Positions 36,929 to 59,600 of a stretch of DNA of 64,000 bases are shown here, in pieces; within the stretch, counting starts at the first letter, position 1; each line of letters begins with the position of its first letter. The translations under genes were made by a program, and so were the position numbers. Source of the DNA: Psammoneis japonica (taxonomy: Eukaryota); contig QPGO01000281.1 in the NCBI GenBank assembly GCA_008632985.1, forward strand, positions 1 through 64,000, written 5' to 3'. Below the pieces are notes generated by a model. That model was not told where the DNA came from. It searched no databases and was given only the letters and a program-made list of their open reading frames with translations.

Positions 36929-37687
36929 TGCAAATGAGGCGAGGACTCACCTGCGATGTCAGGGGACAATGGAATGAAAGCTCTTGCCAAAGCGGCTGTT
37001 GTTGCATCCCAAGAAGAGAAGGAGGAAATTCCGGTTGTCACAGGAGGAGAATGACCACAATTCCCAGGAAGAAGATGTGGAAGAAGAGGAGGAGGAAATG
37101 CGGCTGTCAGAGGAGGAGAAGGAAATCTGTGAATTCCAAGGAAAAAGACAATGATGCTTCTCAGGAGAAGGAAGATGTGGACTCTTTGCCAAAATCATCA
37201 AAATCCAAGGAGGGGGACATTCAAAACATTCCTCCCAAGCTCCGGCATTTCGTGACTTCAATCAAACATGACATGTCAAAGCGTGTGCAGGACAATGTCC
37301 ACCGCACTTGTCCCTTGTTTGCCGTGGTCAACCCAAGCACAGAACCAAAATTACTGACTAAATTGGCAAATTCTGGACGCGGGCCAAATGATCGCGGGAA
37401 GAAATGCTTTTTGTTGCATCACAACCAGAAGGGGTTGTCATCTGACTTCTGCAAAGAAGGAATTAAAAAATCAAGGGCAGCTGCAAAGGATTTTCTTCTT
37501 CGTGAATTCAATCAAGAAAACGAAGGCGACATCATCGATTTGTTGAACAACAAACACACTCACATTTTGGGAATTTGTGCAGTGCCAAAAAATGAAGAAA
37601 TCGGCAAACTGGGTGCGCATCTTGTCGCTGCATTGTTGTGTCAGTGCATTGAATTGGTGCCAGCAACAATTGTTGACTGTGTTCGAG

Positions 37688-38893
37688 TCAACAGAGGAGC
37701 CAAAGTCCACAACCATGGGTTTGATCTGCAAAATGACTGAGCAATTTATGGATGCCACTCATTTCCTCGTCGGTGCACAGGTGTGCGTTTAACCAACAGC
37801 GGCATCCATCAACAATGCATTGGCTCACAAGAGGCTTTGTCCACTGATCGTGCTTTTGGACTTTCACATTGTCCAATGGGGTGGCACAAAGCAGGGGAAG
37901 GAAATGATTCTTGGTCGCAGGCATCAGATCACTTCGTTTCACAGGAGCAAACACAAGCAAGCCGCTGCCCCATGCATCTTGCTCTGTCACTTTGAGTTTC
38001 TTTAGGACAGTTTGTCGACGCTCGGCTGTGAGACAGAACTGTGAAGTTGCAGTCTTCCATGTCATGACAACTTCTTTACAATCCATGCCCGTGGAGGTGC
38101 CACAATTGGGAAGAGATGATGTCATGCTGCAAAACCGATTGCAATGATCGGGTTTTGCCAAAACTGTGCCAGCTTGCAGCCATTTGCCCATGGTGACACA
38201 GGCAACAGCATCAACAAAATGCTTGGGTTCAGCCAGGCATGACAGCATGCATCCACTGCATCCGCCCGTCACAATTTCGTCAACAGCAATCTCAAAGGAA
38301 TGGCGGTGAGCCAACCGACCGAGAGATTCTAGAAAATTGTCACTGGGTGTTGCGCCATTGTTTGCCAGCATTGGTTCTAAAAACAATGCAGTGATTGGCA
38401 CCTTCTTTGCAGCCTGCATCAAACAACGGAGATGAGTGTGGTTGAGACAATCGTTTTTGTGCTCACTGAGCTCCGCGGAGCTCAGAGTGCCTGGCACATG
38501 ATGCGGCAGCGCAATGGTGTGATTGCGTGTAAAAGAGTTAAAGACGTCGTCCGGATGCATTGCCATGCTCGGACCATGTTCTGCACTGAACATGCTGGCA
38601 GTCCAACAGTGGATCGGCCCATGATCACCGGCCACATGACTTCCACATGCAATCAAACATCCGTCGTTGTGCCCTCCCGTCACAGAATTGATTGCAAACA
38701 AATTTGCATCGGAGCCGTTTGGCATCACTTTGTGCAGGACGCATTCCAGGTCTAGGTGGGACCTCGCACCACTGAACTGTGACATCGATGGTTTTTTGAA
38801 TTGTGTCACATGTCGCGCATGCACATTTCTACGTGATTTTGGCGAAATTTTGTGTGATTTTACAGTGCAATGACCAGGCTGTCCATTGAACAA
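37688..38893 (-). pseudogene. Class-III PLP aminotransferase-like cargo gene
   Basis: Motifs NGSDANLFAI, ALFLEPML, AVDEIVTGG.SG and VTMGKW occur in the canonical order. Confidence 0.7.
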
Positions 38894-40393
38894 CTTTTAA
38901 CATTTTTTCTTCTATGCCATTCTCGAGTGTCTTAAGAATGGCGCAGGGCAGGCGCATTGTCCAAAACTTTGAGTACGGACAGGGACAGATGTGCAGCAAA
39001 CTTGGCTGTTTTTTTTTTATGTCAAAGACAAGTGCACACATTAACCAGACTACGAACTACAGAGCTCGCACGCAGAATTCTATGGGGCAAATGTCACAAA
39101 AAGTCCCACCCAGGACTGGAACCCGTCACAGCAGCAATTCACCATCAAAGTGAAGAAAAGTGGCTTCTTCCAACTGCTTGTGATGGCCGATGTCCATGGA
39201 AGAATTCATCAAATCTTTGCCATTGCGTTTTGAGCCACGCTGGCTGACGGCAACCAAACTGCACCCCCAATTTTTTGCCATGTCGTCCATGGCGTCGTTT
39301 GGGATTGTTCAACGTGCAAAAGAGCAAGATGCAAGATTCAAGAAGAGTCCCAAAAGATGATTGGATGGAAAAAAGGGGAGGGATCGCAGTTCTGTTGATG
39401 GACAAAAGGAGGCTCACGAAGCGCAGAGGATTTGTGAAAATGAGGTGGAGCAGCGCATGTGCTCTCAATCACCAAAAGCGCAAAACACGTGCATTCTGCT
39501 GCACTGTGCATTTGCAGACAAGCCCTGCACGCAGGGCCCCATGCATGTTCCACACGCTGAAAGAGTGGCACGCATGCGCGCATGTCCTCCCACCCAATCG
39601 TGTGATTGCACAATGCATTTCATTCAACAACGTAGATGAAGCGAGCACTTTAAAAAAGAGCACACATGAAAACTCAAACTTCAATTGTGGAAAATCATGC
39701 ATTCAAAAGTGAGCCAATGAGAACCCAATTTTTGTTTGAGGAAAATTTTGTTTCAAATGGGAGGAAAGAACAATCTTCTTAACACAACAGGTCGACATGG
39801 TTGTCAATGTTCATTTTAGAACATTGGTGCTTGATTGAAACAATGAAAAATGCAGAAAAGAGTGAAACTGAATGTGGTTCAAAAACCGTGCAATGAGAAC
39901 ATGCAACCGTGACTTTGCAATTGCACCAAACAGATTCGGCTCGTCCCGGACCATCCACAAGTGTAAAAAGTGATCAGAAGTCGAAAACACAATGACGAAT
40001 TCATTTCATCAGACACAGGTGTCGGTCGTCAGCCTTGATCTTACAAACACATCGAGGGCAGACACTTCAACAGAGGGAAACACAACCATGTCAAGGACAG
40101 ATGTTGCAACAGTGGGAAACACAGGTGGGTGTGTTTGAAATCGCAGCATGCGTTTGGAAGCTAACATTGTGATCTGACATGCAGTGGGAAGCTTCTGTGA
40201 CAAATCCAGGGGAAAAAATGACAGCACCCAATCGTCCACTGGATTGTCCAAGAGACTTTTTCCATCCGACAACAGGGGCTGACCCCGCAAGACCAGAGGA
40301 TGCTGCTCTTTTGTGGTCATGCGGAAAGGCACGTCCACAACTTGGTGAGGTGGAGACGGTGCCGCCCAATGGCAAGAAGATGCTTCAAGAGGT

Positions 40394-42570: not shown

Positions 42571-44571
42571 TTGAGAAGTTGATCTGATGGCATTCAATGT
42601 GTGTCATGACGGCATTTCTTTTGCAGACTCAACCAGCCAACCACTCTAAACCATTGTCAAATCCATTGCAAAATGGGACGGTGAGAATGCATGATGAAGT
42701 CGTGTGGATTGTGCTCAGTGTCTTGGAAACACCTCTCACTTTGTTGTTTGTTTGCAACAAAGACAAAGACAGCAAATGACAAACGCACACACAAAACTGC
42801 AACACTCGTTGTGGCTCAAGCGGATCAAACAACTGCTTGCAATTCGCAGGCACAGAGCAAACATCATTGTTGATTTGGCGTGCCTGTTGTTGTGTTGTCT
42901 TGTTCACGCACGCATGCCAATTGTGTTTGTTTGTTTGTGTTTGCAGCGCAAGTGCGAGGAGGCTCACTTGTTCCATGCCTTGGTCCATCAAGATGATGGA
43001 AAATGTTTTGCTCAAGCGCACTTCAAAACCAACCCACTGTTCCCTGCAAAGTGCTGTGGCAAAAAGTGTGATGTTGCTTTTGGATCAAGCAGTCACAAGG
43101 TTGGACAAAGAAAGGCAGTTTGGGTTTGCATGAATGCATTGAATGGTTCTTGCAATTGCAGGTTTGCATTGTGTGTGCAGTGTTGTCAAAAGACCATGTC
43201 AGCTGCATCTAACAAACGGCGCCGAAGGACGACCCGAAACAACAACAACAAACAACAAGGCAACGCAATCGCGCACGACACAACAATGTGATTGCTTGGG
43301 ATTGATTTCACCGGCACAGTCAGGGTTCGGTGGATGTGTTTGTCAACAGAGTCAATCGAAGCACAGCTTCGCAAATGACAGTTGTTCAGAGCATCAACAA
43401 ATTTGTTCAGAGTTGTGATCTGTTTAAATGGAGAGGCTGTCGTTGTCCGTTGTTCATTCAGAGCTTTGCTCCAATTAAATGGAGATTCCACGCACGGGCA
43501 TCCAAACATTGTTCAGAGTCATGCTCTGATTGAATGGACACAATCACAGCAGCACTCTGAATGTCAGCACAATGCTCTAATTTACAAATTAATGCTCTGA
43601 AAATGCAATGCTCCAAACAAAATTCCATGGCTCCGAATGACCAAATTTACTCTGATTGTGCTCTGCATGGGCGTTGTCGCCTCAACTGACTCTTGTTTGC
43701 TCTGAATGTCCCACATTGTGTCGGGACAATTTAAATGAAGCATTGCTCAGAATGAAACATTCGGAGCACAAATGAAGAGAATCTCATTTGCAGTGGACTG
43801 TCGAGAATTGCCAACTCCTCACCACGGAGATGCTCGCCAAATGCTCACCACATCTGTTTGCATCAGTCGCGCGAATGCTTCCCGCCCCACCTGACCCCCT
43901 TCACACCCTTCCTCATCAACGCCCAAATTTCGCTAAGTCGAAAATTCCACTGCGCTGCAGCGCACTGTAGAGCAACGGTGATCGATTTGAGACGTCACGT
44001 GCTGAGCCGCATGTAGAAATCTACTGAGATGACTTGATGTGTTTTTCGTGTAAGTCGCCATGGCGTCTGCGGCCGTTTCTCACAACTTCTTCCAGATTTA
44101 AAACAATGGAAGCAGCACCGTGTGACAATGTCAAGTCCACATGATCATGTCAGGTGAAGAAAATGGCAAAATGGTGTGGACTTGTGGCTAAAATGGACTT
44201 GTTGCATTCACAGGATTGTTCGTGCACCATGCAAACTCAATGCGTGAGGCAGCTAAACTAGATCCACATGATGCACCAACAAGCTTAAAGACCAACTTAA
44301 ATCTGGAGGATTTAATCGGCTCATCATTGTGCAGTTTGATCTTAGACTGAGGGGTCGAAATGGCCCGAGAAAAGGATCTAAAACTTGACAATTGACAGCT
44401 TCTGAAAAAACTCCACAAGTCTGCGATTGCAGCACTGGACAAAAGAGAAATGAACTTCACAGACCAATTGGCACACGACGGTTCGATTGCTCTTCTTTTT
44501 GTTGTCATGCGGTTGAAATTTGACGCCGTTGCGGGCCATCATTTTCATGCTCTGTGTGCCACCATGTTGTC

Positions 44572-45157
44572 TGTCATGTGGCACAAGGCCCATTGTGGGT
44601 GATTGTGGTAAATTTAAGAGTCGTTCATGAAAAGTGAGACCACAAAAGTGTAAAATTATGAAGTGAATTTCTGGAGCGGTGATCTCGCGGAATGTTCTTC
44701 TGATTCTTTCTTTTCCAGAGAAATTCTGTTCTCGTCATGTAGGAACATTCCTGGGTTCTTCTTTAAGTGTGTGTCGTCCAAGGGAACGTCTTGGGACTTC
44801 CGAGGAGGTCACGTATGGTGTCCGAAGGTGTCACGGGAAAAATCGAGAGATCCGATTCACTCTTCATCGTTTCGACCGTTTTCTTGTGAGAATCGGATTG
44901 GCTGAAAAGGAACTTGAAGTTCGGCTGAGAAATGTCTTCTCGATTTACTTGGGAAGTGATGCACGTGTCCAGTTGTTTGCCATCGCTTTCCGCACATGTC
45001 TGGTTGTTTGCTCAGGAGGAAGATGTTGGACAATTGTTCATGCAGTGTGCATGTGTCTCTTGATGTGTGCTCACACAGATGTGTGTTGGTTCTGTCCGCA
45101 GTTCTCTGTTGTTCTTTGTGACGTCACGAAGTGTCGGGTCATGAGCACGACGTGACA
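44572..45157 (-). repeat. 3' LTR
   Basis: Direct repeat of 51209-51798. Confidence 0.95.
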
Positions 45158-45180
45158 CACGCCTCCTCCAATGAATTGCA

Positions 45181-45852
45181 TCAGGGAGAGAAAGGAACGA
45201 GACGCCGTGCATTGACAGTCTCAAGGCAATTTCCTTTTTGGATGATGACAGTGCCATTGGACTTTACTTCATGTGTCTCGGCGAGTTTGGATCGACGAGG
45301 GTTGTCGTTTCGGAGAGAAACAAGGTCTCCTGCTTTGAAGTCATGGTCGTGTCGCCGAGAGTTCTCACGCACGTTGTCTGCTTGCGCTTGTTGTCGGCGG
45401 CGAGCACAAATGGTCGGCCAGTGGACGTTGCATTGCAAGGGCAGGATCACATCGCGTCCAAAAGCAAGTTGGCTGGCAGAGGCTTGCATGACGGTGTGTG
45501 CCGTCGAGTTTGTTGCCCAAGTTGCTGAGGCCATTGTCACATTCCACGGATTCGGTTGATTAAATGCGTCGGGATCATCAACTTGTTGAGCTCGTGTGCA
45601 GCTCCATGAAACATCGTGGGTCCGTTCAAGTGATAAACTCACCTGTGGACTCCGCACTGTTGTGGGTTTAGACTCAATTCCATGAGAAATTGGCAGTTCT
45701 TGAAATTCAACACCTGTAAATTCTGTGCTGTTGTCGTGTGTGCAACAGACCGGGCGCGGGAATTTACACAACCATGCTTGGTTGAATGCTCTGGCTGTTT
45801 CCAGAGCTGAGACTGTGGAGATCTGCTCCATGCCAAAATGATGAGTGGCCAG
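45181..45852 (-). pseudogene. Gypsy integrase core and GPY/F region
   Basis: WLCKFPRP…HDNSTEFTG.EFQE…GIESKPTT…PQ…ERTH; …QLAFGRD; FKAGDLV; ETVNARRLVPF. Confidence 0.85.
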
Positions 45853-47034
45853 GGACACACGGCATTTTGTCGCATTTGGTGACATTTTCTTAAATGAATT
45901 GATGATTTGTCGCGAAAAGACGCGAATTGCAACAAAATGTCCGGGTTGGCAATAAACGGGACAGAAACATTGTTCAACTGAGTCACAAAATGATCAATGT
46001 CATTGATGACCAACCTGCACTTTGGCGATGTCGTTTCAACAAGTGGGGCAATTAACAGAATTTGGTGATCGATGTCATCGACGAAATTTCATCTGACAAA
46101 ATTTGTCGGATGCGACAAAATTTGTCGTGTGAGACAAATTTTGTCGGACGTCCGACAACGCATCCGACAAGACACGACAAGACACGACACGACACGACAC
46201 GTCACGACACGTCACGACACGTCACGACACGTCACGACACGTCACGACACGTCACAACACGTCACAACACGACGACTCACGAACGAAACACCCACACCCC
46301 CCGCCGCACACGCCAACTGCTGACGTCTCCGTTGACACTGTGTCTCTTTTGCACAATGATGCAAAGCGACGATCATGCCGCTCTCGGCGGTCTCCAATTT
46401 TTTTATTTCGAAATTTTGCACTGTCACTCCATGTCCCCGAATGTCGTGCTCTCGTCAATGCCGGGACAACATCGTACGCTTCTACACAGTGGAACGGAAT
46501 GTGCCGGCATGTGTTGCTGTGCTGCACCTTTCATCAGTGGGTGGCTGGGGCCCAGCTCTCTGCTGGTCTAGCGAGCGGCAGGCAAATCTCGTGGAGACAG
46601 TGTCGCAAACATCCGTCTGTCGGCGTTTGTCGGCTCTTGTTGGCTCTTGTTGGCGTTTGTCGTACGTTGTCGGGGTTTGTCGGGGTTTGTCGGATGCGAC
46701 AAAATTTGTCGTACGTCCGACAAAATTTGTCGCACGTCCGACAAAATTTGTCGCACCCGACAAAATTTGTTGCATCCGACAAAATTTGTCGCACGTACGA
46801 CAAAATCGCCAAAACATCAATTGATGAGTGCAGTCTTCGCCGAAAGCCAAATTCATCACAAAGCACCGCAGTTGACACAACGTTTGTGTTTGGGACACGC
46901 CATCGCCAATTAAATGATGATTTTGTCTCATTTATCGCCAACGATGTAAATTTGTCTCAAAGGGCGTTTTTCACGACAAATCGTCCAATTCATCCATGGG
47001 AATGTCGCAATTGGCGACAAAATGCCGTGTGTCC
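45853..47034. mobile_element. 1.18-kb non-autonomous TIR element (Harbinger-like) inserted in the integrase
   Basis: TIR ggacacacggcattttgtcgc / gcgacaaaatgccgtgtgtcc, TSD CAG on both sides. Internal 10-bp (gacacgtcac) and ~21-bp (cgacaaaatttgtcg…) arrays. Confidence 0.85.
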
Positions 47035-49549
47035 CAGATCTGCCATCGCCGGCACCAGCAGTGAAGGCAATCGGTCTGACGGTGTCAACTGCCACCTGCA
47101 ACCAGGGGTCGATCTCAAGGGCTTGCATGTCCTTGAGAGGTGTTTTTCCATGCACTCTGCGGTTCTCTTTGGACCTTGCACAGGCCTGGCATTGGTCTGT
47201 CTTGGTCTTGACGTCTTGGGTCAGACCTTGCCAATGGCAGCACTGTCTGAGGGTCTTTTCCATCCATTGGACACCTGGACAGCGCAAATTGACATGACAC
47301 CAATTCAACAGAGGTGCTTGTAGAGTGGCGGGGATGACAATCTTGTCCTTAAAAAGGGCCAGGCGCAGGTGTCCATCCTGCACCATGCAACTGCAGTCAG
47401 ATGATTCTTTCTGACTCGGGTCGGTGCGAGCAAGTTGCAGCGCTTTTTTGCACACAGCATCATCTTGCTGTGCTTCAATGATCGTGTCAAACGAGACAGG
47501 ACAGCGAGTGTTGTCGTCATGTTCAAAGGCGAAACACTCTTCCAGCATTGGATCTGCAGCTGGTGTCTCTGGGTCACCAGTCGTGGTCGCGGCACGGGAT
47601 GAGAAATCCGCGAGCACATTTTTTGCTCCCGGCAGGTGAAGAATCGTGGGACCAAACTCCTCAACAATCAGCCGCCAACGACACACACGGTCTGATTTGA
47701 AATTTGCAAAGGTCAGATTCTTGTGGTCCGCACAAATCGTGATCCTGTGACCCAACAGGATGTCACGACACTCTCGTAGCGTCACAACTGTCGACAGCAG
47801 TTCTTGTTCGATGACGGGATGTCTTTTTTGCGTGTCAGAGAGTTTGCGGGAGTGGAACATCATTGGGCGCTTGTCTTGAATGACAACGCTGCCCAGCTGG
47901 TGTTTTGAAGCATCGGTGTAGATGTGGAACATCTCATTGAAATCAGGGCAGGCAAGTGGCGTCTCAGCAGAGATTCGTCTCTTAATTTCTTGAAACGCTT
48001 GCTCGTGTTCGGGTTTCCACTCGAACTTGACTGCTTTCGAGGTCATGCTCGAAAGAGGTGCCAATGGATGGGCACGAAGGCACAACATTTCGAGACAGAA
48101 GTTCATCATTCCGATGAAACCTCTGAGTTCTTTCTTTGTTTTGGGCGAAACCAAATTCACAATCGCGTTGACCTTCTTCGGTTGCGGTTTGATTCCGTCT
48201 CTGGCAACAATGAACCCCAGGCACTCCGTTTCTAGAGCGCAAAAGAAAGTTTTTCGCAAATTTACTCTAAAGCCTGAATCACTCAAAAGCACAAATGCTC
48301 CACGCAATTGGGCGAGGTGATCATCAAAGGATCCCTTGCCAATGATCAACAAGTCGTCAACAAAAATCAGTGCAAATTCCAAGTGTCCTAACAGGTCAGT
48401 CATGACCTCTTGGAACACATCTGGGGCTGGTGCAAGTCCCATTGGTGATCTGCAGCAAGCACATTTGCCAAACGGCAGCGCAGCAGTCAGATGTTGCTGA
48501 CACTTCTGGCTGATCCGCATTGAAAAAAATCCCATGTTCAAATCGATCGCGGTGACACAAGCACAGCCGTGCAGCTTTCGTAGCATGGTTGGCATTGAAG
48601 GCAGAGGCCACGGGCGTCGTTGCATGCATCGATTTAAAAGCCAAAAGCAGGTGACGAATCGGCAATCACCACCTTTCTTCGGCATGAACAATGAAGGAAA
48701 TCCCCAAGCTGAGTCTGAGATCCTTCTCAGAACTCCCACTCGGCACAATCTCTCTGCTTCTTCTTTTGCCATGTTGCAGTTGATCTGGGGCATGCTGCAA
48801 GGTTGACACATGATGGGCTTGGTGCTGGGCTCAAGCTCAACATTGACCGGTGGTCGCTTGACGCATTGTCCGAGCTCTCCTTGCGTGAGACTGGAGAAGT
48901 CTTCCAGCAAGGCAATGAGAGCTTCACCTTGCTCTCTTGACAAGTGGTCAGGCACACACTCCCTCAAGTCCTCCACAGGACCACAGTCATTCGGGCGAAC
49001 AGCTTTGGCCTTGGGAGCCGCCACAAGCTCTTCTCGCGTCGTCGGTTGGTGCCAAAAATCCTCGGGATGTCTCATCGGAAAGGACAAGTCATCCCAAGCA
49101 ATGACTTTTTCTTGGAAATCAAGCTTCATCCCAAGCTTGAACAGGACATCTCGTCCTGCTGCAGCATCATAGATTCCTTGCAAGGGTGAAATGTAGAAGC
49201 ACAAATCGAATTGTCGGTGCAAGGACATGTCAAGGAATCGACAACGAGTGAGTGCGACATGAGTTGTCTGATGGGTCTGCGCAAACAAGGTCTCCCATCT
49301 TGTTGGTGCTGGGGTGGCCTCATCCAGTGTTCCTTTTGAGAGCACATCTCTTTTCATTGTTGTTCGACTGCTGCCGCTGTCGAGCAAGGCAAGCAGAACA
49401 TTGTTGCTTTTGTCTCGAGTCCCATCAACTGGATCGAGCAGTTGAAGTTGCACGACACATCCGGGGTTGACCTGGAACACATGAGCCCCTTCTCGTAGGA
49501 TGTGTCCCTCCATGAGGGAACACTGCGCAGTCGCAATCGTCCATTCCAT
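47035..49549 (-). pseudogene. pol: Gypsy pol: protease, reverse transcriptase, RNase H, integrase zinc finger
   Basis: LLDSGSS; AIDLNMGF, PMGL, FVDDLL, LGF; TDASK.QLG, EQELL, DHKNL, ADFSSR; H…PG…C..C. Confidence 0.92.
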
Positions 49550-49899
49550 CTGGACACAATGCCTCCATCAACTCCTGGGCGTCTGTGCTGTTGTCATGTT
49601 CAAAAATTGATGACGTCAGAGACGCGCGCTCGTCTGCGCTGTCTACAGGATCACGCTCGTCATCGGCATCTTCTCCAAAAGATGACAGCTCGTCCACAGA
49701 CGACATGCACAAGGTTGTCGACGATGCTGCTGACATGCTGCTGTCGGCACTCCACAAATCATTGCTGTCTGTCGATGTTGATCCACCATGTGGCACAAGT
49801 TCCGGCAGGCTGGATTCGTCAGTTGTTTCCACTGTGGATCCCTGTCTTTGTTGCAGCTCAAAGTTTTCTGGCAACAGAGAACGCAGCAATTCTCTTCCA

Positions 49900-50953
49900 C
49901 GCAAGCATCACATTCTCCATCTGATTCTTCATGAGAATGGCTCGCATCGTCTTCCTGCATCTCAAGTCCATCTTCTTGTTCGCAAGGTTCAGGTTCAGCA
50001 TCATCTCTTGTGCTGAGTTGTTCCAGTTGTTCAGCTGGGGTTGTGTCTGTGCTGCTGTCCAGGTTCTGGACTGGTGGAGCTTCTTCTGGCTCGTTCACGG
50101 CACGCATTTCTTGCTGGTTCGTTCGGGCATGTCCTCTCTGTTGACCACAACCTTGAGGATGGTTCCTGTCACGCTGTAAGTTGGCTTGGCATCGAGCAGG
50201 ATGTCGATGTGTTTGGTCAGGAGGAGCTCCGGCGTTGTTGTTGTCATTGTTGCTCGGTCGCATCGCTCGGTCGCCTCCATGTCCGCACGCGGTTCGGCAG
50301 CCGTGAGTGTGGGCACGTCTCTGGAATTGCCATTGGTTGCTTGACAACCTTCTCTCTTGTTGGGCCTTCTTCTTCTGCAGGAAGGATTCAATGGTGGAAC
50401 AGCATGTCTCCAAGTCTGCCGTGCCATGCTCGCCTCTGTGTCCGACGGACAGCTGGAATCTCTCGCGCCAATCATCCGGCACAGCGTGCTCTGCTGCATG
50501 AGTCAACTCTTGGTCGGTGAGAGGGGCTCTCTCTTCTGCAGAGCCTCTCATGCAGGGCACTGGCTCATTGATTTCCGAAACTCTGGAGGTGAAATCAATG
50601 AAGGCAGACTCTCTTGGCTTGCGCACGGAGCGCAAGTGCTGTTTCTGTGCCACCGCTGAGTTTTGCGGAAGCAATCCAGCAGTGACGGTCTCCAATGCTG
50701 CACTAAATTGTTCTGGGGTAAGATCTTGTGGGTCTTCAACTAGAGCTCTGACAGCTCTTTGATGTCGGTCCTTTGTGCAGCCTTTGGTTGGGCACAGCAT
50801 CTGGCAATGGAGGGCTGGTCCAGCGGTCCAGTGCTTGAGCTTTCTTGGCTCATGAAAGTTCTTTAAGAACACTGGGTGCTTCTCCTTGTTGGAGGCATCA
50901 CACTGATGGATGTAGAATGCCACAGTGTCTTCCGGGTCTCCCAGGTCAGGCAC
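49900..50953 (-). pseudogene. gag: Gypsy gag-like ORF
   Basis: Lies between the 5' LTR and pol. QKQHLRSVRKP…F..RV.EINE…AVPDDW…F pattern. Confidence 0.7.
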
Positions 50954-51208
50954 AACCTTGCACTTGATTGGGTTCGCAACGTCGTCCGCTGCATTTGGGG
51001 TGCGACTTGTGTGACTTCACAATCGCTTGACTGGTCATGTTCTCCTGTGCTGTGTGAGCATCATCTTGAGGCAATGCTCTAAAGTGCCATTCTTCAGTTC
51101 CGTCGAACTGGGGGCTGCATGCGTGGGCTTTCTTCGCCTTGAGCAGAATGCTCAGTGCTTTGCTGAGAGGCGGCATCATCACAATGACACGCCACTGTTT
51201 GATCAAAG

Positions 51209-51798
51209 TGTCATAGTGGCACAAGGCCCATTGTGGGTGATTGTGGTAAATTTAAGAGTCATTCATGAAAAGTGAGACCACAAAAGTGCAAAATTATGAA
51301 GTGAATTTCTGGAGCGGCGATCTCGCGGAATGTTCTTCTGACTCTTTCTTTTCCAGAGAAATTCTGTTCTCGTCATGTAGGAACGTTCCTGGGTTCTTCT
51401 TTAAGTGTGTGTCGTCTAAGGGAACATCTTGGGACTTCCGAGGAGGTCACGCATGGTGTCCGAAGGTGTCACGGGAAAAATCGAGAGATCCGATTCGCTC
51501 TTCATCGTTTCGACCGTTTTCTTGTGAGAATCGGATTGGCTGAAAAGGAACTTGAAGTTCGGCTAAGAAATGTCTTCTCGATTTGCTTGGGAAGTGATGC
51601 ACGTGTCCCGTTGTTTGCCATCGCTTTCCGCACATGTCCGGTTGTTTGCTTGGGAGGAAGATGTTGGACAATTGTTCATGATGTAGCATGCATGTGTCTC
51701 TTGATGCATGTTCACGTAGATGCACGTTGGTTCTGTCCGCAGTTCTCTGTTGTTCTTTATGACATCACGAAGTGTCGGGTCATGAGCACGACGTGACA
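51209..51798 (-). repeat. 5' LTR
   Basis: Direct repeat of 44572-45157. Confidence 0.95.
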
Positions 51799-52029
51799 TG
51801 TCGATGCTTGTTGTTTTCTGTTTTCTGGGCGTTGCCGTCAGTTTTGGTCGGTTTTGATGGGGGGGGGGGATTGTGTTTGGTTTGAAAGAGTGATGTGGCA
51901 GTTCGCATATGACGGAGAGACTGACGTAATATATTTTTAACGAAAAAGTCGTGGTGAGCATTTGGTGAGCATCTCCGTGGTGAGGAATTAGCAATTCTCG
52001 GACTGTCCAACAGAAAGGATCCAGTGTAA

Positions 52030-53019
52030 GGCCAACCCTAACCGAGCGAAAAAAGAAAATGAAAAAGACGAAATAGCTCGAAAAGCTCGAACTTACCCGG
52101 ATTTTCACCCTCGACTCTTTTTCAACTCGGCCGAAACGAAAAAAGAGTCCGACTCTTTTTTCACAAACCCGGAAGCGTGAAAAAAGAGAAAAGAGTGATG
52201 TGGGCCGGATGCTGTCATACGTTTCGTACATGCGTCTTGCTTTACGTAGGACACCAGTAAAGTAAACCAAAGTTTCAAGTTCGCCTCACGCACCCCACAT
52301 CATCAAGTCGCCATGGCGGTCTGTGATTGTTTTTGACGACTTCTTTCAACGTCACGACTATATAAGTAACACCAATCGATAATGTGAAGTAGACATGATA
52401 TGTATCTTGAAGGAACTGGTGAAGTGTACTGCAGTTCTTCTACAATAGACCTGTACTGCAGTTCTTCTACAACAGACCTTTTGTCTTCAAATGATTTTGC
52501 CTGTCTTGATGTGCATCATAGAAAGTCGACACATAAGGTCACTAAAGTAGATCTGTATGACACATAAACAACCTTACTGACTAATTCATATACGACTTAT
52601 TCGACGGTGCTATTCTTATGTTGTTTGCTTTTAGATTAGGGGCTCGAAACGGCACGAGAAGTGTACAAAAACTTTCCACTTGACAACCACTTAAGTCACC
52701 CATAAGCCTGTTGTATTTTCACTGAACAAAAAAGGAAATAGCACCCACAGACTAAGAAAAATATGGCGGTTCTAATGGTGTTATTCTTATTGTCATATTG
52801 TAGAACTTCGATGCCGTTATGGGCCGTCATCTTCATTGTCGTGTGAGGCCTGAGGCCTCTCGCTTTTCTTATCAGATCAGCAATGCCCAAGACACCCGGA
52901 TATTTAGGGGCCCTAACTTTTTAATTTTCACGCCGGTTAGGTCACCAAAACGACAAAACGAAAAAAGAGATGAGGTTGGCTCTTTTTCATTTTCTTTTTT
53001 CGCTCGGCTAGGGTTGGCC
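52030..53019. mobile_element. 990-bp PIF/Harbinger-type non-autonomous element with normal TpA content
   Basis: ~39-bp TIR ggccaaccctaaccgagcgaaaaaagaaaatgaaaaaga and its reverse complement ending at 53019. TSD TAA (52027-29, 53020-22). Confidence 0.9.
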
Positions 53020-53022
53020 TAA

Positions 53023-53459
53023 AGTCTACAACCCTAATGAATGATGAGAGTCAGATAATCCAGATGGTTAGTTTTGATACGTCTGGCGCGGAACCGTTGG
53101 ATCTCAAGGATGCGTTTGGAAAATTTCAGATTGAAGGTTGTGCTGATCAGATGAACAGCTTTAACCGGCTATGTCTCGCCCCTGTTAATTCCATTTATTC
53201 CGTGTCAAATATTGGTGACGAAAATGTCACATTCACTGCTGAAGGTTCTGATTCGTTCGGTCGAGTTACTCTTGAAGGCGTAAGTCTTGAACAGGGTGAG
53301 ACCGTCGGTTTTTTTGGCTTTGGCGGCTTTCTCGATCTTTGTATTGAAGGCATTGCTTGCTATACAAGCAATTTGACTGCCAGGGCTGAATCTGATGAAA
53401 ATGGAGGCCTGTGTGAAGATATGGCGATGGATGAGCTTTGTTATGATGTGAGGATTTGA
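53023..53459 (+). pseudogene. Gene A copy 2, 3' part (TpA retained)
   Basis: Closely matches 430-862. Tyr codons are intact. Confidence 0.88.
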
Positions 53460-55008
53460 TTGGCGGCGCCCAAAGAATCTCCCCCGTATGTTGTGTTTCG
53501 AGACATACTGTAAATTTGTCGTTTTGTACTTACTACAGTAGGGCTTCTTCAAGACTTGTCGTTTTGCTTTGCGATAGCTACAGTAGATACCTACAACGAG
53601 TCATAGCCATCGAGAGATGAGTTTGTTATATCCGAGAGGGTCGAGGGATATTCTTTAGGCTACTTTGCGGAGTGCGGGCATGACTTGCCAGAGTGGGTCG
53701 GATACGTGGACTATTTTCTAGCGCCGTTTTCATCATGCTAGCTGATGAAGCGAGTCATTTAGAGTTCAACCAGCGACAATTCTGTCATTGTCATGCGAGA
53801 AGGGAGGCAATGGCCGGCACAACATGGACAACTGGAGCAATCGAGTCTTCATTATAATTCGCTGATTCCGCCATTGTTCGTCTTGCGCTTCTTCATTTCA
53901 GGCGCGCTTTCGTCGTCATCGACGGGGCTGCCTGTGCAAGGCGATTTGGATTCCCTGCGCTTGTCCTTGATGCGTTCGTCGTTGCTCCCATTTGCCGCAG
54001 CTGCCTTGAAATCGTTTTGGCTCTCCTGCTTTCCTTGACGTCGTTGTAGCTCTGCATGTGTTTCTTCATCCTGCCTTTTCCTTCCTTTCGTAGCTCTTTT
54101 GGTTCTTGTTCGCCTTGTCCTCGCCTTCTTGAACTCGTCACGGTTTGCGCCTGCCTTCCAGACCAAGTCGTATGCTCCTCCCTGTTGTCTTTTTGGGACA
54201 GTTGATATAATGAGAACATTCGTCTCTAGTTTCGATACACGGTATAGTACGGGCCCCAGATTTGAGATTGATGAACTCGTACGTAATCACTTTTCATGCT
54301 ATTAAAGCATTCGCTGCTTGTAACGCTGTGCTGCTTAATTCGATTCTTCATTCTTCAGCTACCAATCGCCACATTTCACTGGGTCATGCCATGCGTATAA
54401 CTGCATCAAAACAAGAATGAAATATTTGGAATACTCTTAGTCTTCTCCAAGAGTCGTGAATTTGCCTGAGACGCTTTGTTCGAAAAGAAGAAACATGATG
54501 TGAGATGCGGCCGTGTCATTGACAACAACAGACGGATTGTATCAGGGATACAACAACTGGATCCCACATCCTCTGTCTCTTGCGATTCGGCTTATCCTGA
54601 CATTCTGCCGCGGCAACAGATTCAACATCCTCATTGCTACTTCGTTCGTCGGCACTGAGCTGTCAGCTCGAGCCATGACGTCAAAGCTTTCGACCCTAGT
54701 TGCCATTGTCGTCACGCGGTATTTAATGGTCATATACTTTCGTCGATGTGATTTGGCTCACCACGCCCCCCTACTAAGCCTCATGGTGCCTTCCTATGGC
54801 AGAAAACACGCCTCACAAATCCAAATAACAGAAAGCGGGTTCCACTCGAGCACCTATGAAACATTGTAACTTCTGGACCGGATGAATGGGGGCAGACGAT
54901 GAAATGAATGTGTACTTGAGAGTGCGATATAAAGCTACAAACTATATGAATCTCGGATGTGCATGTACAATTGTGTCTCCCACCTTTCGCCTCCGCTACC
55001 ACGCGAAG

Positions 55009-56218
55009 CTAATGGCATGCAATGAACATGTACCCAATCATAAGGATGTGTACAGCATAAACACCCAAGAAGAGCCCCCCTCGTTCAGGATTGCCAAGCG
55101 AATTATCTTCCGGACGCAACGGCAAACTGGTAGGAGGTTCTTGTGGAGGCGAGCTTTGTCCTTGTTGGGTGCTTGGACTAACTGTTGCGGGAGACCCAGT
55201 TATTTGCGTTGGGCCCATGGTTGTCGGTGGGACCGTGGATGGGTTTGTCAAAGGTGGGGTTGGAATTGCCGTTGGTCGTTGGCACAGTGGGTGAGTTTGT
55301 CGTTGGTTCGGTAGGAGATGTGGTTGTCGGTGGGACCGTGGTTGGATTGATCGGCTTTTCCGTGGTAAGAGGGGGGTCCGTTGCGGCGGCACAACCTTCG
55401 GAACACCAACGATCTCTTGTGCCCTCCGGGTCTTCATTGAAGAGCCTCTGAAACACACCACTTGTACCGCCGTTGCACTCGATGGAACTGGGAAAATCAC
55501 AACCCGACCCCGTGATCGCACATATTTGCCTTTTCCCGTTCATTGAATTCATCTCGTCAAAGACAAGGTCATTATAGGGTCCACAAAAATCCTCGCAGAC
55601 TATTTTGCTGCAGCGGCCTGGCAGATCTGGGCGATTTGCGTCGCACCGGTAACTCTCGCTCTCACAAGACCGCCTAAATGGGGTCGTCGTTATCGGCGTC
55701 AGAGTGGGTCGAGGAGTCAATGCAGGCGGCCGTGTCGACGTCGGAGTGGGTCGAGGAGTCGATTCAGGCGGTCGTGTCACCGGTGGCAGGCCGGTACCGG
55801 CACCACACGCAACACAGACCGTTGAACGGACTTCTTCTGGGTGATTATTCATAGTTTCTTGGAACTGCGTCATGGTGGGACAATTGACGTCTTCATGCCA
55901 TCCACAATTTCGGATGGCGCACTTGTATACGAATCCTAAATACATGCCGTAGAACTGTGCAGTGTACTCGAGCGTTTTTCCTTGTCCACAGAAATCTGTG
56001 CAGATGTAGCACTCGGACATTGCAAAAGCCTTAGGACAGTCCAATCCGGAACGAAATTCGCAATAGTCGCTAACCGACAATTTGCGACTCGTTGTGGTGT
56101 TGGTGCGATTTCTCGCCCCGCGTACGAGTAGTGTTTCTTGGCCATTGGTGTTGGAAGGCCATCCAAACACAACTTGCTTTAGGATAAAGGGAAGCAGAGT
56201 TACCGAAAGCTTGAGCAT
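55009..56218 (-). CDS. Gene B copy 2, with an apparent 2-bp frameshift at ~55272
   Basis: ORF 55178..56218 plus the C-terminus in 55009..55521 reconstitute a paralogue of 2220..3392. ccgttttggtc in B1 reads ccgttggtc here. Confidence 0.8.
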
Positions 56219-56689
56219 GTGCGCACCTTATTCTTGCTGCCGCGAAAAACTGCGAGGTTCACTTTTTATGACCAGTGCTTTTAAGCCTGGATGTGGGCTC
56301 ACTGGGGTGTTGCATTCGTCGATCGGTGCATTTTGTGAGTCCTTCAAAAACACACACGAAAAAAACTCGCGATTTCATTCCTGGATGTGTCACGAATTCG
56401 AATGTCGATTCTCGTTTTTGTTTTTGGTCTCAACCATCGTTTGCGCCATGCGTATCGTGGATTCTTCTCAAATCTTTGACAAGGAACGAAGGATGAACTA
56501 AGCAAAACGGAGAACGCCATTGTCACTTCATGCAGCCGCTGCTTTGTGTTTCTTTTTTCTTTTTTGTCAAAAAAGTGCAAGACGAAAGACGAGTCACGAT
56601 TGCATGACGTCCCCAACGATGACGAGTTTCTACTTACAATTGCTCCTACGTAACAGCTCCATACAAAACATTGTATCCAAGACTCTAAG

Positions 56690-59600
56690 TGTTCTTTGGT
56701 GGCGGTTTCTGTCTCAATCACTGTGTGCACTTTTGGGTCCTTTCTCTCCACTGGAGCAGCAGCAGAGAGAGAGAGCAGAGAGAGCAGCAGCCTCCAGAGC
56801 TGCTGCTCTGGAGCCACCGCAGGCAGCATGGAAGCACAAGAAGAAAGCGTTCATCATGGGCTCTTGTTGAGTCTTTGACAAGCAACAAAGGACAAGCAAA
56901 ACAGAGAACACCGTTGTCACTTCATGCCACCACTGCTTTGTGTTTTTTTGTAAAAAAATGCAAGTGAAGCAACAAAGATGAGCCCTCAATTGTGCCACGT
57001 GCGCCTGACATGCTGAGTTTCTGCTGCTTGCACTCCTGCTCCTGCGTGCTGACAGCTCCGTGCAAAAATTTGGTGCCAAGACTCCAAGCGAACATTGGCG
57101 GCATTTTCTGCCTCAACTGCTGTGCATTGCAAACATCTTGGTCTGAGATTGTGCAATCAAAGGAGAAGAAAATGGAGAGGGGGTGGCCACCACAGGGGCA
57201 TGATGGAGTCACAAACTGAGATGAAGAAAATGAAGAAGAGCACATGGCCAGCACAAGTCAATGGCAGCAGCCTTGGCCCCAAGCCCCCACACATGTGCCT
57301 TGTCCTTGCAATGGCGCCATGAGCACTCAAGAGTTGCAGAACACTCTCCAGCCAGGCAGCTGCCTCCCAGACCCTCCACCCAGCAGTGTCAGCTGATTGC
57401 AAAGTTTTCTCTGCAGCAATCAGACCACAGTCAGCCGATTGCATCCCTGCAGAGCAGCAATTGGTTGGCTGCATTTGTGCAGCAATTGTGTGGTCTGATG
57501 AACTGACTGCTGCCATTTCACTGATTTCAGCTGGAAAAAGAGCTTGAATTTTGATTGCGGTCGATTGCAACAGTCGATTGTGAATGTGACCTCCTGGGCT
57601 CTTTCCCAACAATCAGGTCATTGCAGTCAAGTTTGCAGCAGTGATTGCAGTCAAAGTGAGGCTGAATGCAATTGATCCTGGCAACTGGTTGACACTGCCC
57701 TCCAGGCCATGTCAACTTTTGTCTGAACAACCTTGCGGAACAGCGCAACAAGCAAAATGGGCAAGCAACCCATGGGGGCTCATTGCAGCCAGAAGCAACA
57801 CACTCTTCATTTTCAGATTTAACATTTGTGCCTTTGAAATCAATCCAGAGCAGATGAAGCAAGCTGGAAGCTCAATTTGTCAAATTTTGTCATCCTGCAG
57901 GATGGTGGCAACAATGTGATTTTGTCAACAACATTGTTTGGCTGCATTTTTTGTCATGCACCAAGAATTTTGCAGACAAACTTTGTTCTGCACTTTCACT
58001 CCAACAATCCAACTCTCTCCAAATTGACAATGTGAAAGTGGAGCCATTGCAATCACTTCAAAAATGTCCTCTCAAAAGATCCCTTGGATCCAAGTCATTG
58101 CTCTGTGCAGCAAAATCCAGGACTCATGTTCTTTGCTTTGTTGAAGACTGCTGAAACAGCAGCTCCCTCTCCATCTTGCTCTCAGTCAACATGAAACCAA
58201 CCTCCTGCACCAGCAATGTCTCACACCACCACAAATCGAGACAACTGATCTTCACACCACCACACCAGCTTTGGCTCAGTGGGTGCCAAAAATCTGGCAA
58301 ATGGTGGGATGATGCATCATCTGCATGCAACATGGCATCACAAATGGGTGCAACGGCATGCTTGCACAAAACTCATCTGGATTCTGTTCTCTGATGGTCT
58401 GTTTGTGAACCCAAAAAAAAGTGTGACAAACCTGCTGCAGCAATGGGGCTGGACAAAACAATGATTGTTTGGATGCCTCATCTGCAGCGTCAATGTCATC
58501 ATTGGCTCCAGTGGGCTTTTGACAAGTTCTCCATGTTGTCACCACCATGATGGTCTGTGCACTCAGTTGGAGCATGCCTGCCATGCCATTTCGAAGTTGC
58601 TTGAGGCCTGGGTCTCACAGCTGCATCAACCTCAGAGTCAACACACCTTGCACTTTGTTTTCCTCCTCTTTGGAGCACACTGAGCAAAATCCTCTTGCAG
58701 GAGGCCCTGTTGTCTGTGCTCAGGAGCTGCACATGCATCCCCTCAAATCGTCCTCAAGCAAGAACATGGAGGAAGTGCCAGCACACTGTGTTGTGCCATT
58801 TGGCATCATCAGCAGACCCACCAGGCCCACACATGACAGCTCAGCACACAACAAAAGTGACAGTGCCGCCATTGTTGTGTCAGCTGCAACTTTGGATTTT
58901 TCAAGAGCTGCTGCAAAGCCAGCCTTGAAAGTGCTGAGGCCACTCTTCACATTTTGTCCATCAAAACAGCACATTGTGGAAACTGACCAGCTGCCTTTTT
59001 CCCAAGTCAGAGGAGCTCATTGGCTGCAACACAACAAAGAAAGCTGACAATCTCTCCTCCACTTTCATGCTGCCTCCTGCTCCAATGTTGGAAAACAGCT
59101 GAAAACCACTCACAGTGTGTTTGGGTTCAATGAGCTTGGGAATTTTTGTTGGCCATGGCACATGCTGTGTGTTTTGCAGACAGAGCAAAGCATCTGTGAG
59201 AACTTGTCAAAAGTTGCAATTTTGACAGCAAGACAAAACAACCAAGGTGGGTCAAGGCAGCAGCTGTCTTGTTCAAGCTGCTGCGGTGCTGTGTGGCAGC
59301 AGTCTAAATGACATGCTCTGCCTTCAAAACACATTTCTCACTTCTCCAGCTGCCTCAGAGGCAACAAAGCTGAAAGCATCTCTCAAAGAGAAAAACATGA
59401 GCTCTTTGTTGTGTCACCCATGTGCCAAAATCTGGCAGAAATGGACAACCACAGGTGGCCTCCACACTTCAACTTTTTAGCTCATTTTGGCTCAGTCAAT
59501 GGTTTCACAGTCTGCTGCTGCACACCATCATCATGACTCAACATCTGTCATCTGAGCAGCACAATCTGTGCTCCAATTGCTTGTGCTGCTTTCTTGGCAC

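Follow-up and report, generated by a model that had tools for sequence, protein, structure and literature searches.

The window analysed here, a 64,000-nucleotide stretch of DNA, contains a structurally complete Ty3/Gypsy LTR retrotransposon on the minus strand (44572–51798). Its 3′ LTR (44572–45157, minus strand), which starts with TG and ends with CA, is 94.6% identical to the 5′ LTR (51209–51798, minus strand; assigned by comparison of the pair). The element is flanked by the target-site duplication TGTC (left copy at 44568–44571, right copy at 51799–51802; unstranded), and a contig of sequencing run X1 represents the empty site, with 44567 joined to 51799 through four shared letters and the skipped part ending in TG..CA. 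A purine-rich tract, GGAGGAGGCG, directly precedes the LTR start on the minus strand (45158–45169) and is polypurine-tract-like by position only. The 879-codon pol frame (46931–49567, minus strand) was assigned by Pfam and alignments, and comprises a protease DSG motif (LLDSG, residues 61–65), reverse transcriptase (RVT_1, 296–454), RNase H (RT_RNaseH, 542–638; also RT_RNaseH_2) and the integrase zinc domain (Integrase_H2C2, 745–801). Downstream lies a remnant of the integrase core in a 270-codon frame (45184–45993, minus strand), which has no Pfam match but is recognized by tblastn with the proteins of relatives, covering 45145–45957 with up to 59 overlapping matches. The gag-like frame (49646–51016, minus strand; 457 codons) matches no Pfam family and was assigned by tblastn, with a depth of at most 4 overlapping matches across 50111–50938. 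The order protease, reverse transcriptase, RNase H, integrase, together with two LTRs ending in TG...CA and the short target-site duplication, places the element among Ty3/Gypsy (Metaviridae-type) retrotransposons. It is dead: tyrosine is replaced at 20 of 22 conserved columns, the zinc-motif histidine at pol residue 763 has become cysteine, and the integrase region is split by an 858-bp block (45921–46778, unstranded) that contains 10-bp and 21-bp tandem repeats and is skipped by one run X1 contig.

Tyrosine is nearly absent from pol. The first-pass annotation had proposed that conserved tyrosines of Gypsy pol were systematically replaced by cysteine or histidine, and all 11 strings that it quoted (KCACCRSPMGL, ECLGF, NFC, ACPDF, KHQLG, FHSRKL, QKRHP, ECRDILLG, ICADHKNL, WCH and CCHW) are found in the translation of 46931–49567 on the minus strand, within the single 879-codon frame. 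That frame contains 4 tyrosines in 879 residues (0.46%, against 2.9–4.2% in 20 relatives) and 4.7% cysteine (against 0.7–1.6%). The integrase core frame has 1 tyrosine in 270 residues, and the gag-like frame 1 in 457, with 5.9% cysteine and 5.5% histidine. We defined 22 conserved columns as those with tyrosine in at least 60% of the 20 relatives (alignment A1); there the element has cysteine at 7, histidine at 4, phenylalanine at 6, tyrosine at 2, isoleucine at 2 and glutamate at 1. Only 2 of the 22 columns thus keep tyrosine, whereas the other consensus residues are conserved at 232 of 371 (62.5%; Fisher p = 6e-7). Cysteine or histidine accounts for only 11 of the 22 columns; the phenylalanine (6), isoleucine (2) and glutamate (1) cannot be produced by TA→TG or TA→CA and are probably native to the lineage, and two of these columns likewise vary in the relatives P0053 and P0041. 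The closest relative, P0128 (52% identical over 256 residues), covers 8 of the quoted sites and has tyrosine at every one. At ECRDILLG most relatives have phenylalanine and P0128 alone has tyrosine, and at KHQLG and FHSRKL tyrosine falls below 60% in alignment A1 but is present in the closest relative. Native cysteine or histidine in relatives, which would have spoken against replacement, was sought in 20 + 19 aligned relatives and found only as minority histidine at columns 612 (4 of 20), 644 (3 of 20) and 778; the cysteine pattern is shared by 0 of 39.

The codon changes point the same way. When substitutions were tabulated by codon, 25 of 95 single-step differences from the consensus were reachable only via TA→TG or TA→CA, and a further 6 were Ile→Met (ATA→ATG). 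Together with the 7 cysteines, the 4 histidines and the tyrosines of P0128 (8 of 8), these routes support the first-pass reading that the ancestor had TA and that both TAY→TGY and TAY→CAY occurred, both strands being hit. The Tyr columns and codon routes also give the direction of change, A:T→G:C. By the genetic code, no sense codon in any frame can become a stop through TA→TG or TA→CA, as had been argued for tyrosine codons, and this would explain why the long frame survived. In 200 first-order Markov simulations (7,227 nt, depleted composition) the mean length of the longest frame was 211 codons and none was longer than 379; even for TA-poor DNA, the 879-codon frame exceeds what chance would give.

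The loss of TpA extends far beyond the element, which lies inside a large TpA-depleted, CpA/TpG-enriched domain (4017–51907, unstranded). In 1-kb bins, TA observed/expected is 0.00–0.27 in this domain, and CA and TG reach 1.3–2.3. Its left edge is sharp, with TA at 3940 and 4016 and the next only at 4632, whereas the right edge is graded from 51799 to 52250; the effect reaches 100–500 bp into the flanks. A second domain (56687–60430, unstranded), defined by TA and CG observed/expected, has values of 0.00–0.07 for TA and 0.08–0.20 for CG at 57–60 kb. A 2,155-nt run X1 contig (31-mer depth 68) spans its edge (55880–58034) with 3 differences; run X1 possibly comes from the assembly's own sample, and so does not independently prove the sequence free of errors. 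The genes between the two domains have normal TpA (about 0.6 observed/expected). Regional TpA loss totals about 52 kb of the window, of which the main domain makes up 48 kb.

The baseline is 12 kb of TpA-normal DNA from the window, on the assumption that the domain originally had a similar composition. Against it, TA drops from 38.0 to 5.2 per kb and CG from 62.9 to 32.5, and CA rises from 65.7 to 104.2 and TG from 76.8 to 100.7. The combined loss of TA and CG (63.2 per kb) is thus set against a combined gain of CA and TG of 62.4 per kb. AA and AT are not depleted in TpA-poor DNA, so there is no general AT-to-GC drive. TpA makes up 0.5% of dinucleotides in the 48-kb domain, which is near saturation; about 95% of the expected TpA is gone, which is the end state of the process. 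CpG decay is also at work in the domain, with CG observed/expected as low as 0.08. The young Gypsy element, however, still has CG at 0.7–0.9 while its TA is at 0.1, indicating that the TpA process is faster than CpG decay. Within the element, CA is at 1.61 and TG at 1.35 on the plus strand. TGA is the main stop in depleted DNA (23.2 per kb, against 2.7 for TAA and 1.3 for TAG).

The remaining TpA follows the flanking bases. In depleted DNA, retention is 0.75 for TTAA (40 against 128 counts), 0.03 for GTAC and 0 for ATAT (62 against 0). Fitted susceptibility by the +1 base is 3.07 for T, 1.73 for C, 0.68 for G and 0.02 for A. The adenine in TAT and TAC is most affected, and TAA/TTAA is largely spared.

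A Pfam search took in 242 frames with a minimum length of 90 codons: 142 from the whole window had 130 codons or more, and 100 from the depleted domains had 90–129. Besides pol, it matched only another integrase zinc domain, weak relics of DUF7467 and of an aminotransferase, and a few stretches of low complexity. The second Gypsy-type zinc domain (6344–6649, minus strand; Integrase_H2C2, E = 1.7e-14) lies in the depleted domain and has no tyrosine in 102 residues. The relic of the DUF7467 gene family (32489–33526, plus strand; E = 6.2e-5, below Pfam's cut-off) is likewise TpA-depleted and has no tyrosine in 346 residues; copies elsewhere in the window are TpA-normal, and over about 230 bases aligned with one of these the relic keeps TA at 0 of 13 TA sites. 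The aminotransferase-like frame matched solved structures weakly (E = 0.003) and was too degenerate for a column-wise tyrosine count. Three paralogous gene copies in the window, 76–92% identical, are untouched. The evidence points to regional targeting that seems not to be set off by repeats.

The protein footprint, no tyrosine with excess cysteine and histidine, can be used to screen public protein sets, and P0127 was found in this way. This Gypsy pol of another family has no tyrosine in 699 amino acids, and at the 17 tyrosine columns defined by 8 relatives (50–67% identity) it has histidine at 10 and cysteine at 7. Judged by its alignment, P0127 is an independent replicate of the footprint. 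The nearest named relatives of both P0127 and the element described here are in diatoms. Atlas searches returned nothing for P0038 and, for P0039, no more than bacterial look-alikes below threshold; a word-index search with P0039 was likewise negative.

The two LTRs date the changes. Over 586 columns they differ by 27 transitions and 1 transversion, with just 3 substitutions outside the TA, CG, CA and TG classes, and background LTR divergence is about 0.5%. Site classes are TA/TA 5, TA/CA 5, TA/TG 3 and CA/TG 4–5; differences fall on 8 of 13 TA-bearing pairs and on 9 of 34 CG-bearing pairs. TA and CG sites account for almost all of these differences, TG-versus-CA pairs among them, from which it follows that most changes occurred after insertion, on DNA and on both strands. 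TG-versus-CA pairs could also come from CpG decay on both copies; given the higher rate of change at TA than at CG, we ascribe most of them to TA. In a control pair of TpA-normal gene paralogs (92% identity, 2,914 columns), there are 120 transitions and 117 transversions, with TA/TA at 87 and CA/TG at 2. A 279-bp tandem repeat inside the domain has units that differ by 4–5 CA/TG pairs per 279 columns. From the LTR comparison, an estimated 44–70% of TA sites changed per LTR copy, against about 0.3% background per copy. The LTR pair thus offers a built-in clock, placing the changes after insertion at a per-site TpA rate estimated at roughly 100 times background and several times that of CpG decay.

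We consider it likely that the locus is a dead Ty3/Gypsy element that underwent post-insertion, DNA-level TpA hypermutation across a 48-kb domain, as in Bigelowiella natans (Mettrop et al., bioRxiv 10.64898/2026.01.13.699255). After the element had inserted, a process acting on DNA would have turned TpA into TpG or CpA (A:T to G:C) on both strands, throughout the element and the surrounding domain. Both tyrosine codons contain TA, and would become cysteine (TGY) or histidine (CAY); other TA codons would change alike (ATA to ATG or ACA, GTA to GCA, CTA to CCA, TTA to TCA). Susceptibility would be set by the base 3′ of the adenine, in the order T > C > G, with A almost immune. Spectrum, timing, regional extent and context rule are observed at this locus; the chemistry would be conversion of adenine to hypoxanthine, read as G, and the enzyme an ADAT/TadA-like deaminase that targets silenced or foreign DNA. 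The first-pass annotation was confined to pol: the TpA loss is regional rather than pol-specific, it occurred after insertion, and the process has been in print since 2026.

Several other readings were weighed against this one. Because TpA is self-complementary, A→G cannot be told in sequence from T→C on the other strand, and all sequence results would fit equally well if thymine were modified instead, for example if T at TpA were oxidized to a base that mispairs with G; the context rule would then apply to the other strand. A single step, however, leads from A to G when adenine is deaminated to hypoxanthine, and there is no evidence for a thymine-modifying enzyme. The main text of the B. natans preprint names an ADAT2-like candidate, and we regard thymine chemistry as unlikely. 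A-to-I editing of the transcript before integration, copied into DNA by reverse transcription, would accord with the 5′ U/T preference that the preprint's discussion describes as typical of adenosine deaminases acting on RNA. It is extremely improbable: the LTRs, identical at integration, differ at 8 TA-versus-TG/CA and 4–5 TG-versus-CA sites, the sense strand shows both A→G and T→C (7 cysteines, 4 histidines), and DNA that is not a retroelement (tandem repeats, the DUF7467 relic) is affected too.

The composition could instead be native, through long-term TA avoidance or GC-biased conversion in the element or domain, with cysteine and histidine ancestral. Phenylalanine at six conserved tyrosine columns could indeed be a lineage-specific change, and a minority of relatives have native histidine at columns 612, 644 and 778. 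Against this, catalytic and zinc-binding motifs are damaged, the absence of the cysteine pattern holds across all 39 aligned relatives, the LTRs diverge almost solely at TA and CG sites on a background of about 0.5%, and AA and AT are undepleted, making native composition very unlikely. An equally slim chance attaches to a sequencing or assembly artefact, with G or C called wrongly where silenced DNA carries a modified base at TpA. The runs that contain the window sequence do come from one sample, possibly the source of the assembly, and no RNA run is among those listed. However, contigs with a 31-mer depth of about 68 repeat the depleted sequence across the domain edge (3 differences in 2,155 nt), strand-wise misreading predicts mixed TG and CA calls at each site rather than one fixed choice, and the LTRs and tandem units carry different fixed outcomes; the preprint's main text, moreover, reports mutations called from Illumina reads of separate lines. 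Polymerase-eta-type WA mutagenesis is ruled out because AA is undepleted, and GC-biased conversion because TA alone is lost.

We know of no natural DNA adenine deaminase that has been characterized as a genome-defence enzyme; laboratory adenine base editors were evolved from a tRNA deaminase. If hypermutation by adenine deamination is the correct reading, the 5′-T-A-[T>C>G>>A] preference would fingerprint a natural DNA adenine deaminase, and the order TAT > TAC > TAG >> TAA provides a rule for testing candidates. We hold it possible rather than probable that the locus comes from a marine protist lineage other than that of B. natans, and that TpA-directed adenine DNA editing would then be a widespread protist defence that acts on chromatin-like domains with this fixed preference. 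Domains rather than repeats as such would be the target, since duplicated genes are spared, host-gene relics within the domain are wrecked and the flanks are affected over 100–500 bp.

Among known systems, fungal RIP converts C to T mostly at CpA, creates TpA and is triggered by duplication. The locus resembles it in a transposon-killing burst of transitions that struck a single dinucleotide in the DNA after insertion, with sharp or slightly leaky edges. RIP is nevertheless ruled out: TpA is destroyed here rather than created, and the three duplicated gene copies are spared. APOBEC3 and ADAR edits arise during reverse transcription or on RNA, are strand-specific and are common to both LTRs. 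They share with the locus deaminase-type transition clusters, fixed in endogenous retroelements of animals, and are ruled out because both strands are affected here and the LTRs differ at TA sites. Decay of CpG in methylated DNA likewise loses a self-complementary pyrimidine–purine step to TpG/CpA, but affects CG, not TA. Diatom DNMT4, described in PMC9998398 as related to the RIP enzyme RID and of unknown function, concerns cytosine as presented there, and explains no TA loss.

The closest match is the TpA-only A:T-to-G:C hypermutation of integrated viral DNA in B. natans mutation-accumulation lines (10.64898/2026.01.13.699255), the only report that a literature search on TpA-directed A→G change in protists or transposons returned. 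According to its main text, two viral inserts (NCLDV and virophage) took 231 of the 302 new mutations, of which nearly all were A→G or T→C and these all on TpA; new mutations arise at about 1,000 times background in living lines, and TpA-poor coding sequences are enriched for reverse transcriptase domains. As in that account, change here is restricted to TpA, gives TpG or CpA on either strand (cysteine 7, histidine 4; LTR TA/CA 5, TA/TG 3), consists almost only of A:T→G:C transitions (27 against 1 transversion between the LTRs, with CpG-type C→T also present), and is confined to bounded foreign or silent DNA. It likewise leaves a lasting footprint of clustered 1-kb windows in which TpA is scarce and CpA+TpG abundant: 40 of 64 pass both of the preprint's cut-offs, in runs of up to 11, under a combined-Rho formula that is our own reading of the preprint. 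Normal parts of the window (TpA 3.8%, CpA+TpG 14.3%) resemble the reported B. natans coding-sequence means (4.1% and 13.7%), a likeness that is not diagnostic. The differences lie in target and stage. In B. natans the process was seen live, and TpA is reported still to make up 3.3% and 9.2% of dinucleotides in the NCLDV and virophage inserts; what was affected here is an LTR retrotransposon plus a 48-kb domain near saturation (0.5%). A word search of the preprint's main text for trinucleotide, context, LTR, retrotransposon and tyrosine returned none of these; relative to that text, the present locus adds dating by LTR divergence, the flanking-base rule and the Tyr→Cys/His protein footprint, together with an end state and evidence for regional targeting. 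The match to the B. natans process is one of signature only, and the locus is a new instance of a B. natans-type process, with added detail, rather than a new process.

The pol open frame (46931-49567, minus strand, 879 codons), which contains the interval singled out in the first-pass annotation (47035-49549), is part of a complete Ty3/Gypsy LTR element at 44572-51798. Its LTRs (44572-45157 and 51209-51798) are 94.6% identical, start with TG and end with CA, and a 4-bp target-site duplication, TGTC, lies on both sides of the element. Pfam domains follow one another in the frame in the order RVT_1 (E = 3e-14), two RNase H families (E = 1e-21 and 5e-24), Integrase_H2C2 (E = 7e-7). A purine-rich tract adjoins the 3' LTR. 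The element also has a gag-like frame (49646-51016; tblastn coverage by proteins of relatives, 50111-50938) and an integrase-core remnant (45184-45993; coverage, 45145-45957). In a single contig from sequencing run X1, position 44567 is followed immediately by 51799, so the same data also contain an empty site elsewhere, and the 31-mer depth in X1 over the element region (400-3800) indicates a multi-copy family. One X1 contig skips 45921-46778, revealing another element copy without this segment. The block 45921-46930, within the integrase region, may be a small nested insertion; it carries 10.7 copies of a 10-bp repeat (46165-46271) and 5.4 copies of a 21-bp repeat that contains a palindrome (46697-46806).

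All 11 peptide strings quoted for the proposal that conserved pol tyrosines had become cysteine or histidine are found in the translated frame. Tyrosine accounts for 4 of 879 residues, versus 2.9–4.2% in 20 relatives (31–36% identity), and cysteine for 4.7%, versus 0.7–1.6%. At the 22 alignment columns with tyrosine in at least 60% of these relatives, the element has Cys (7), Phe (6), His (4), Tyr (2), Ile (2) and Glu (1); tyrosine is thus kept at 9% of its columns, the remaining consensus residues together at 62.5% (P = 6e-7). An exhaustive profile-free search gave closer relatives, the closest being P0128 (52% identity over 256 residues), which has tyrosine at all eight quoted sites that it covers (ECLGF, NFC, ACPDF, KHQLG, FHSRKL, QKRHP, ECRDILLG and ICADHKNL). 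The replacement is therefore real and the ancestral residue was tyrosine, but the proposal describes only half of the tyrosine columns, the others being neither Cys nor His. A few of the histidines (columns 612, 644 and 778) may be native. At pol residue 763, Cys has replaced the second His of the HHCC zinc motif of the integrase. This takes two steps (CAY to TAY to TGY), as though a TA had first arisen there and then been converted.

A second protein, P0127 (699 residues, encoded on a public contig of 2273 bp), represents a different Gypsy family and shares 31% identity with the element. It has no tyrosine, 2.9% cysteine and 5.3% histidine, the one such case among the 150 representatives listed. 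Compared with eight relatives (50–67% identity), it has His at 10 and Cys at 7 of 17 tyrosine columns, with neither Tyr nor Phe at any; conservation of Phe, Trp, Asp, His and Gln is 100%, and the other changes are Leu to Pro (6), Thr to Ala (4), Lys to Glu (2) and Ile to Val (2). P0127 thus shows the element's footprint in cleaner form. Among the relatives of P0127 are proteins named from two diatoms, Nitzschia inconspicua and Mayamaea pseudoterrestris, and the nearest named relatives of both retroelements are from diatoms; one relative is labelled CCRYP, presumably Cyclotella cryptica. In the element, Phe occupies six conserved tyrosine columns (pol residues 347, 348, 402, 452, 490 and 638), three of which are 100% or 95% Tyr in the 20 relatives, and it lies outside the reach of TA to TG or CA. 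The lack of Phe at the tyrosine columns of P0127 suggests that these residues are native to the element's lineage; more speculatively, they would be replacements eliminating the only unavoidable TA-bearing codon.

The direction of change is visible beyond tyrosine. The element differs from the 60% consensus at 159 columns, 95 of them one base change away; 25 of these 95 can be reached only by TA to TG or TA to CA, and six more are Ile to Met. The non-tyrosine routes comprise Val to Ala (GCA), Leu to Ser (TCA), Leu to Pro (CCA) and Ile to Thr (ACA) and, following a codon with a final T, Lys to Glu, Thr to Ala and Ile to Val. Because LTRs are identical at integration, they serve as a clock. Over 586 columns they differ by 27 transitions and 1 transversion, with only 3 substitutions outside the TA, CG, CA and TG classes; paired dinucleotides are TA/TA (5), TA/CA (5), TA/TG (3) and CA/TG (4–5), together with CG/CG (25), CG/CA (6) and CG/TG (3). 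A control pair of TpA-normal gene paralogs (92% identity, 2914 columns) has 120 transitions, 117 transversions, 87 TA/TA and 2 CA/TG pairs. From the LTR counts we estimate that 44–70% of TA sites per copy and ~15% of CG sites would have been hit, with a background of ~0.3% per site; each LTR would have held ~16–20 TA at insertion, where normal DNA predicts ~22. The mutation therefore took place after insertion, on DNA and on both strands, which excludes RNA editing before integration; the earlier reading of a TA ancestor hit on both strands is supported. Within the same depleted domain, the ~5 units of a 279-bp tandem repeat (35423-36939) lack TA and differ mainly by TG-versus-CA pairs (4–5 per 279 columns), so this array was mutated after it had formed. 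Two 417-bp units (16909-17746) differ mainly at CG sites, with one CA/TG pair.

As the first-pass annotation had argued for tyrosine codons, such changes cannot create stops: under the genetic code, neither turns a sense codon into a stop in any frame. TGA is the main stop left in depleted DNA (23.2 per kb of strand; TAA 2.7, TAG 1.3). In simulated TA-poor sequences of element length the longest frame never exceeded 379 codons, so the 879-codon frame is genuinely what remains of a gene, otherwise little damaged.

TpA loss is not specific to the pol gene. Observed/expected TpA is 0.18 over the whole window and, in 1-kb bins, ~0.6 at 1-4000, 0.00–0.27 at 4001-52000, ~0.6 at 52001-56000, 0.00–0.07 at 57001-60000 and 0.69 at 61001-62000, followed by two GC-rich bins at 0.40–0.47. 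A GC-rich (59%) frame of 532 codons there (61961-63556, minus strand) encodes a protein of low complexity, rich in Ala, Ser, Gly and Lys and repeating the motif (D/K)-(A/K)-G-D-W-x-(G/A)-V, which matched neither a Pfam family nor the Atlas. CpA and TpG reach 1.3–2.3 in the depleted blocks. Between normal and depleted DNA, counts per kb drop for TA (38.0 to 5.2) and CG (62.9 to 32.5) and climb for CA (65.7 to 104.2) and TG (76.8 to 100.7), so that the loss of TA+CG (63.2) balances the gain of CA+TG (62.4). The left domain edge is sharp (TA at 4016, next at 4632) and the right edge is graded over ~450 bp past the LTR end. Every long frame in depleted DNA is tyrosine-poor: gag 1/457, integrase core 1/270, a DUF7467 relic 0/346 and an aminotransferase-like relic 0/402. 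The first-pass reading thus stands in substance and was too narrow in scope, the change being regional rather than pol-specific. X1 contigs (31-mer depth ~65–90 on single-copy parts) match the window, including 55880-58034 over a domain edge (3 differences in 2155 nt). As X1 may be the assembly's own sample, this agreement shows consistency and is no independent proof. Differences among X1 contigs aligned to the window comprise 798 transitions versus 183 transversions, several being adjacent TG/CA swaps.

Retention of TpA depends strongly on its neighbours. Measured in depleted DNA against normal DNA (in brackets, raw two-strand counts, normal then depleted), it is 0.75 for TTAA (40, 128), 0.29 for CTAA/TTAG (86, 106), 0.27 for GTAA/TTAC (106, 122), 0.25 for CTAG (32, 34), 0.12 for CTAC/GTAG (136, 68), 0.085 for ATAA/TTAT (132, 48), 0.03 for both GTAC (80, 10) and ATAG/CTAT (106, 14), 0.003 for ATAC/GTAT (140, 2) and 0 for ATAT (62, 0). 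A four-parameter fit with the base 3' of each strand's adenine as sole predictor matches the ten classes reasonably well, with susceptibilities of 3.07 (T), 1.73 (C), 0.68 (G) and 0.02 (A).

Repetition alone is not the trigger, because three paralogous DUF7467 gene copies (80-859, 52974-53456 and 60681-61433; 76–92% identity), in paralogous units at 1-4002, ~53020-56739 and ~60553-61557, retain normal TpA. A fourth, relic copy inside the domain (32489-33526) has lost all tyrosine codons, the host-like relics within the domain are TpA-depleted, and depleted DNA is partly single-copy by depth (56.7–57.2 and 59.1–60.4 kb). The domain edges at 4.0 and 56.7 kb fall where two gene copies cease to be homologous. 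The Gypsy element is flanked by TpA-free stretches of 188 bp on its left and 109 bp on its right, and on the right TpA recovers over a few hundred bases; targeting would thus be regional, with some leakage into flanks. A 402-codon frame (37691-38896, minus strand; 0 Tyr, 7% His) bears a weak resemblance to class-III aminotransferases (Pfam E = 4e-6, below cut-off; PDB E = 0.003); it is probably the relic of a host gene caught up in the hypermutation of the domain. Another Gypsy-type integrase zinc-binding domain (6344-6649, minus strand, E = 1.7e-14, no Tyr) was hit by the same process longer ago, and the DNA around it has lost nearly all its CpG as well. Observed/expected CpG is 0.08–0.5 in older parts (0.08–0.24 at 5001-7000 and 57001-60000) versus 0.7–0.9 in the young Gypsy element, so CpG decay, which may date the parts of these domains, looks like a second process running there more slowly.

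The change at this locus is a post-insertion, DNA-level, two-strand, TpA-restricted A:T to G:C mutation that extends over a region and depends on the 3' base. Adenine would be enzymatically deaminated to hypoxanthine, perhaps by an enzyme of ADAT/TadA type recruited to foreign DNA that is silenced. Thymine-directed chemistry may act instead: the sequence accommodates both alike, and as TpA is self-complementary the context rule can equally be stated for thymine. By contrast, RIP is set off by duplication and mutates in the reverse direction, and APOBEC and ADAR footprints are strand-specific and pre-integration. Our literature search found a TpA-directed process only in a preprint on Bigelowiella natans (bioRxiv 10.64898/2026.01.13.699255). 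According to its main text, 231 of 302 new single-base mutations in mutation-accumulation lines fell within integrated giant-virus and virophage regions, where almost all were A to G or T to C, all of those on TpA, at ~6e-7 per site per generation versus 3.5e-10 elsewhere, and in some lines only. It further describes 124 clusters of TpA-poor, CpA+TpG-rich windows, an enrichment of reverse transcriptase and DDE endonuclease domains among TpA-poor coding sequences, and an ADAT2-like protein as the proposed deaminase. By its cut-offs, with the combined-Rho formula as we read it, 40 of 64 1-kb windows here qualify. Normal-TpA parts of our window lie near its B. natans CDS means for TpA and CpA+TpG frequencies, which is not diagnostic of the host, but the retroelements have their nearest named relatives in diatoms. 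The matching signature and these 40 windows identify the process as one already known, from this one preprint, in whose main text a word search for context, trinucleotide, LTR, retrotransposon and tyrosine gave zero occurrences. The locus is thus a new, unusually clean instance of this recently described hypermutation, to which it adds timing, saturation, a context rule and a protein-level screen.
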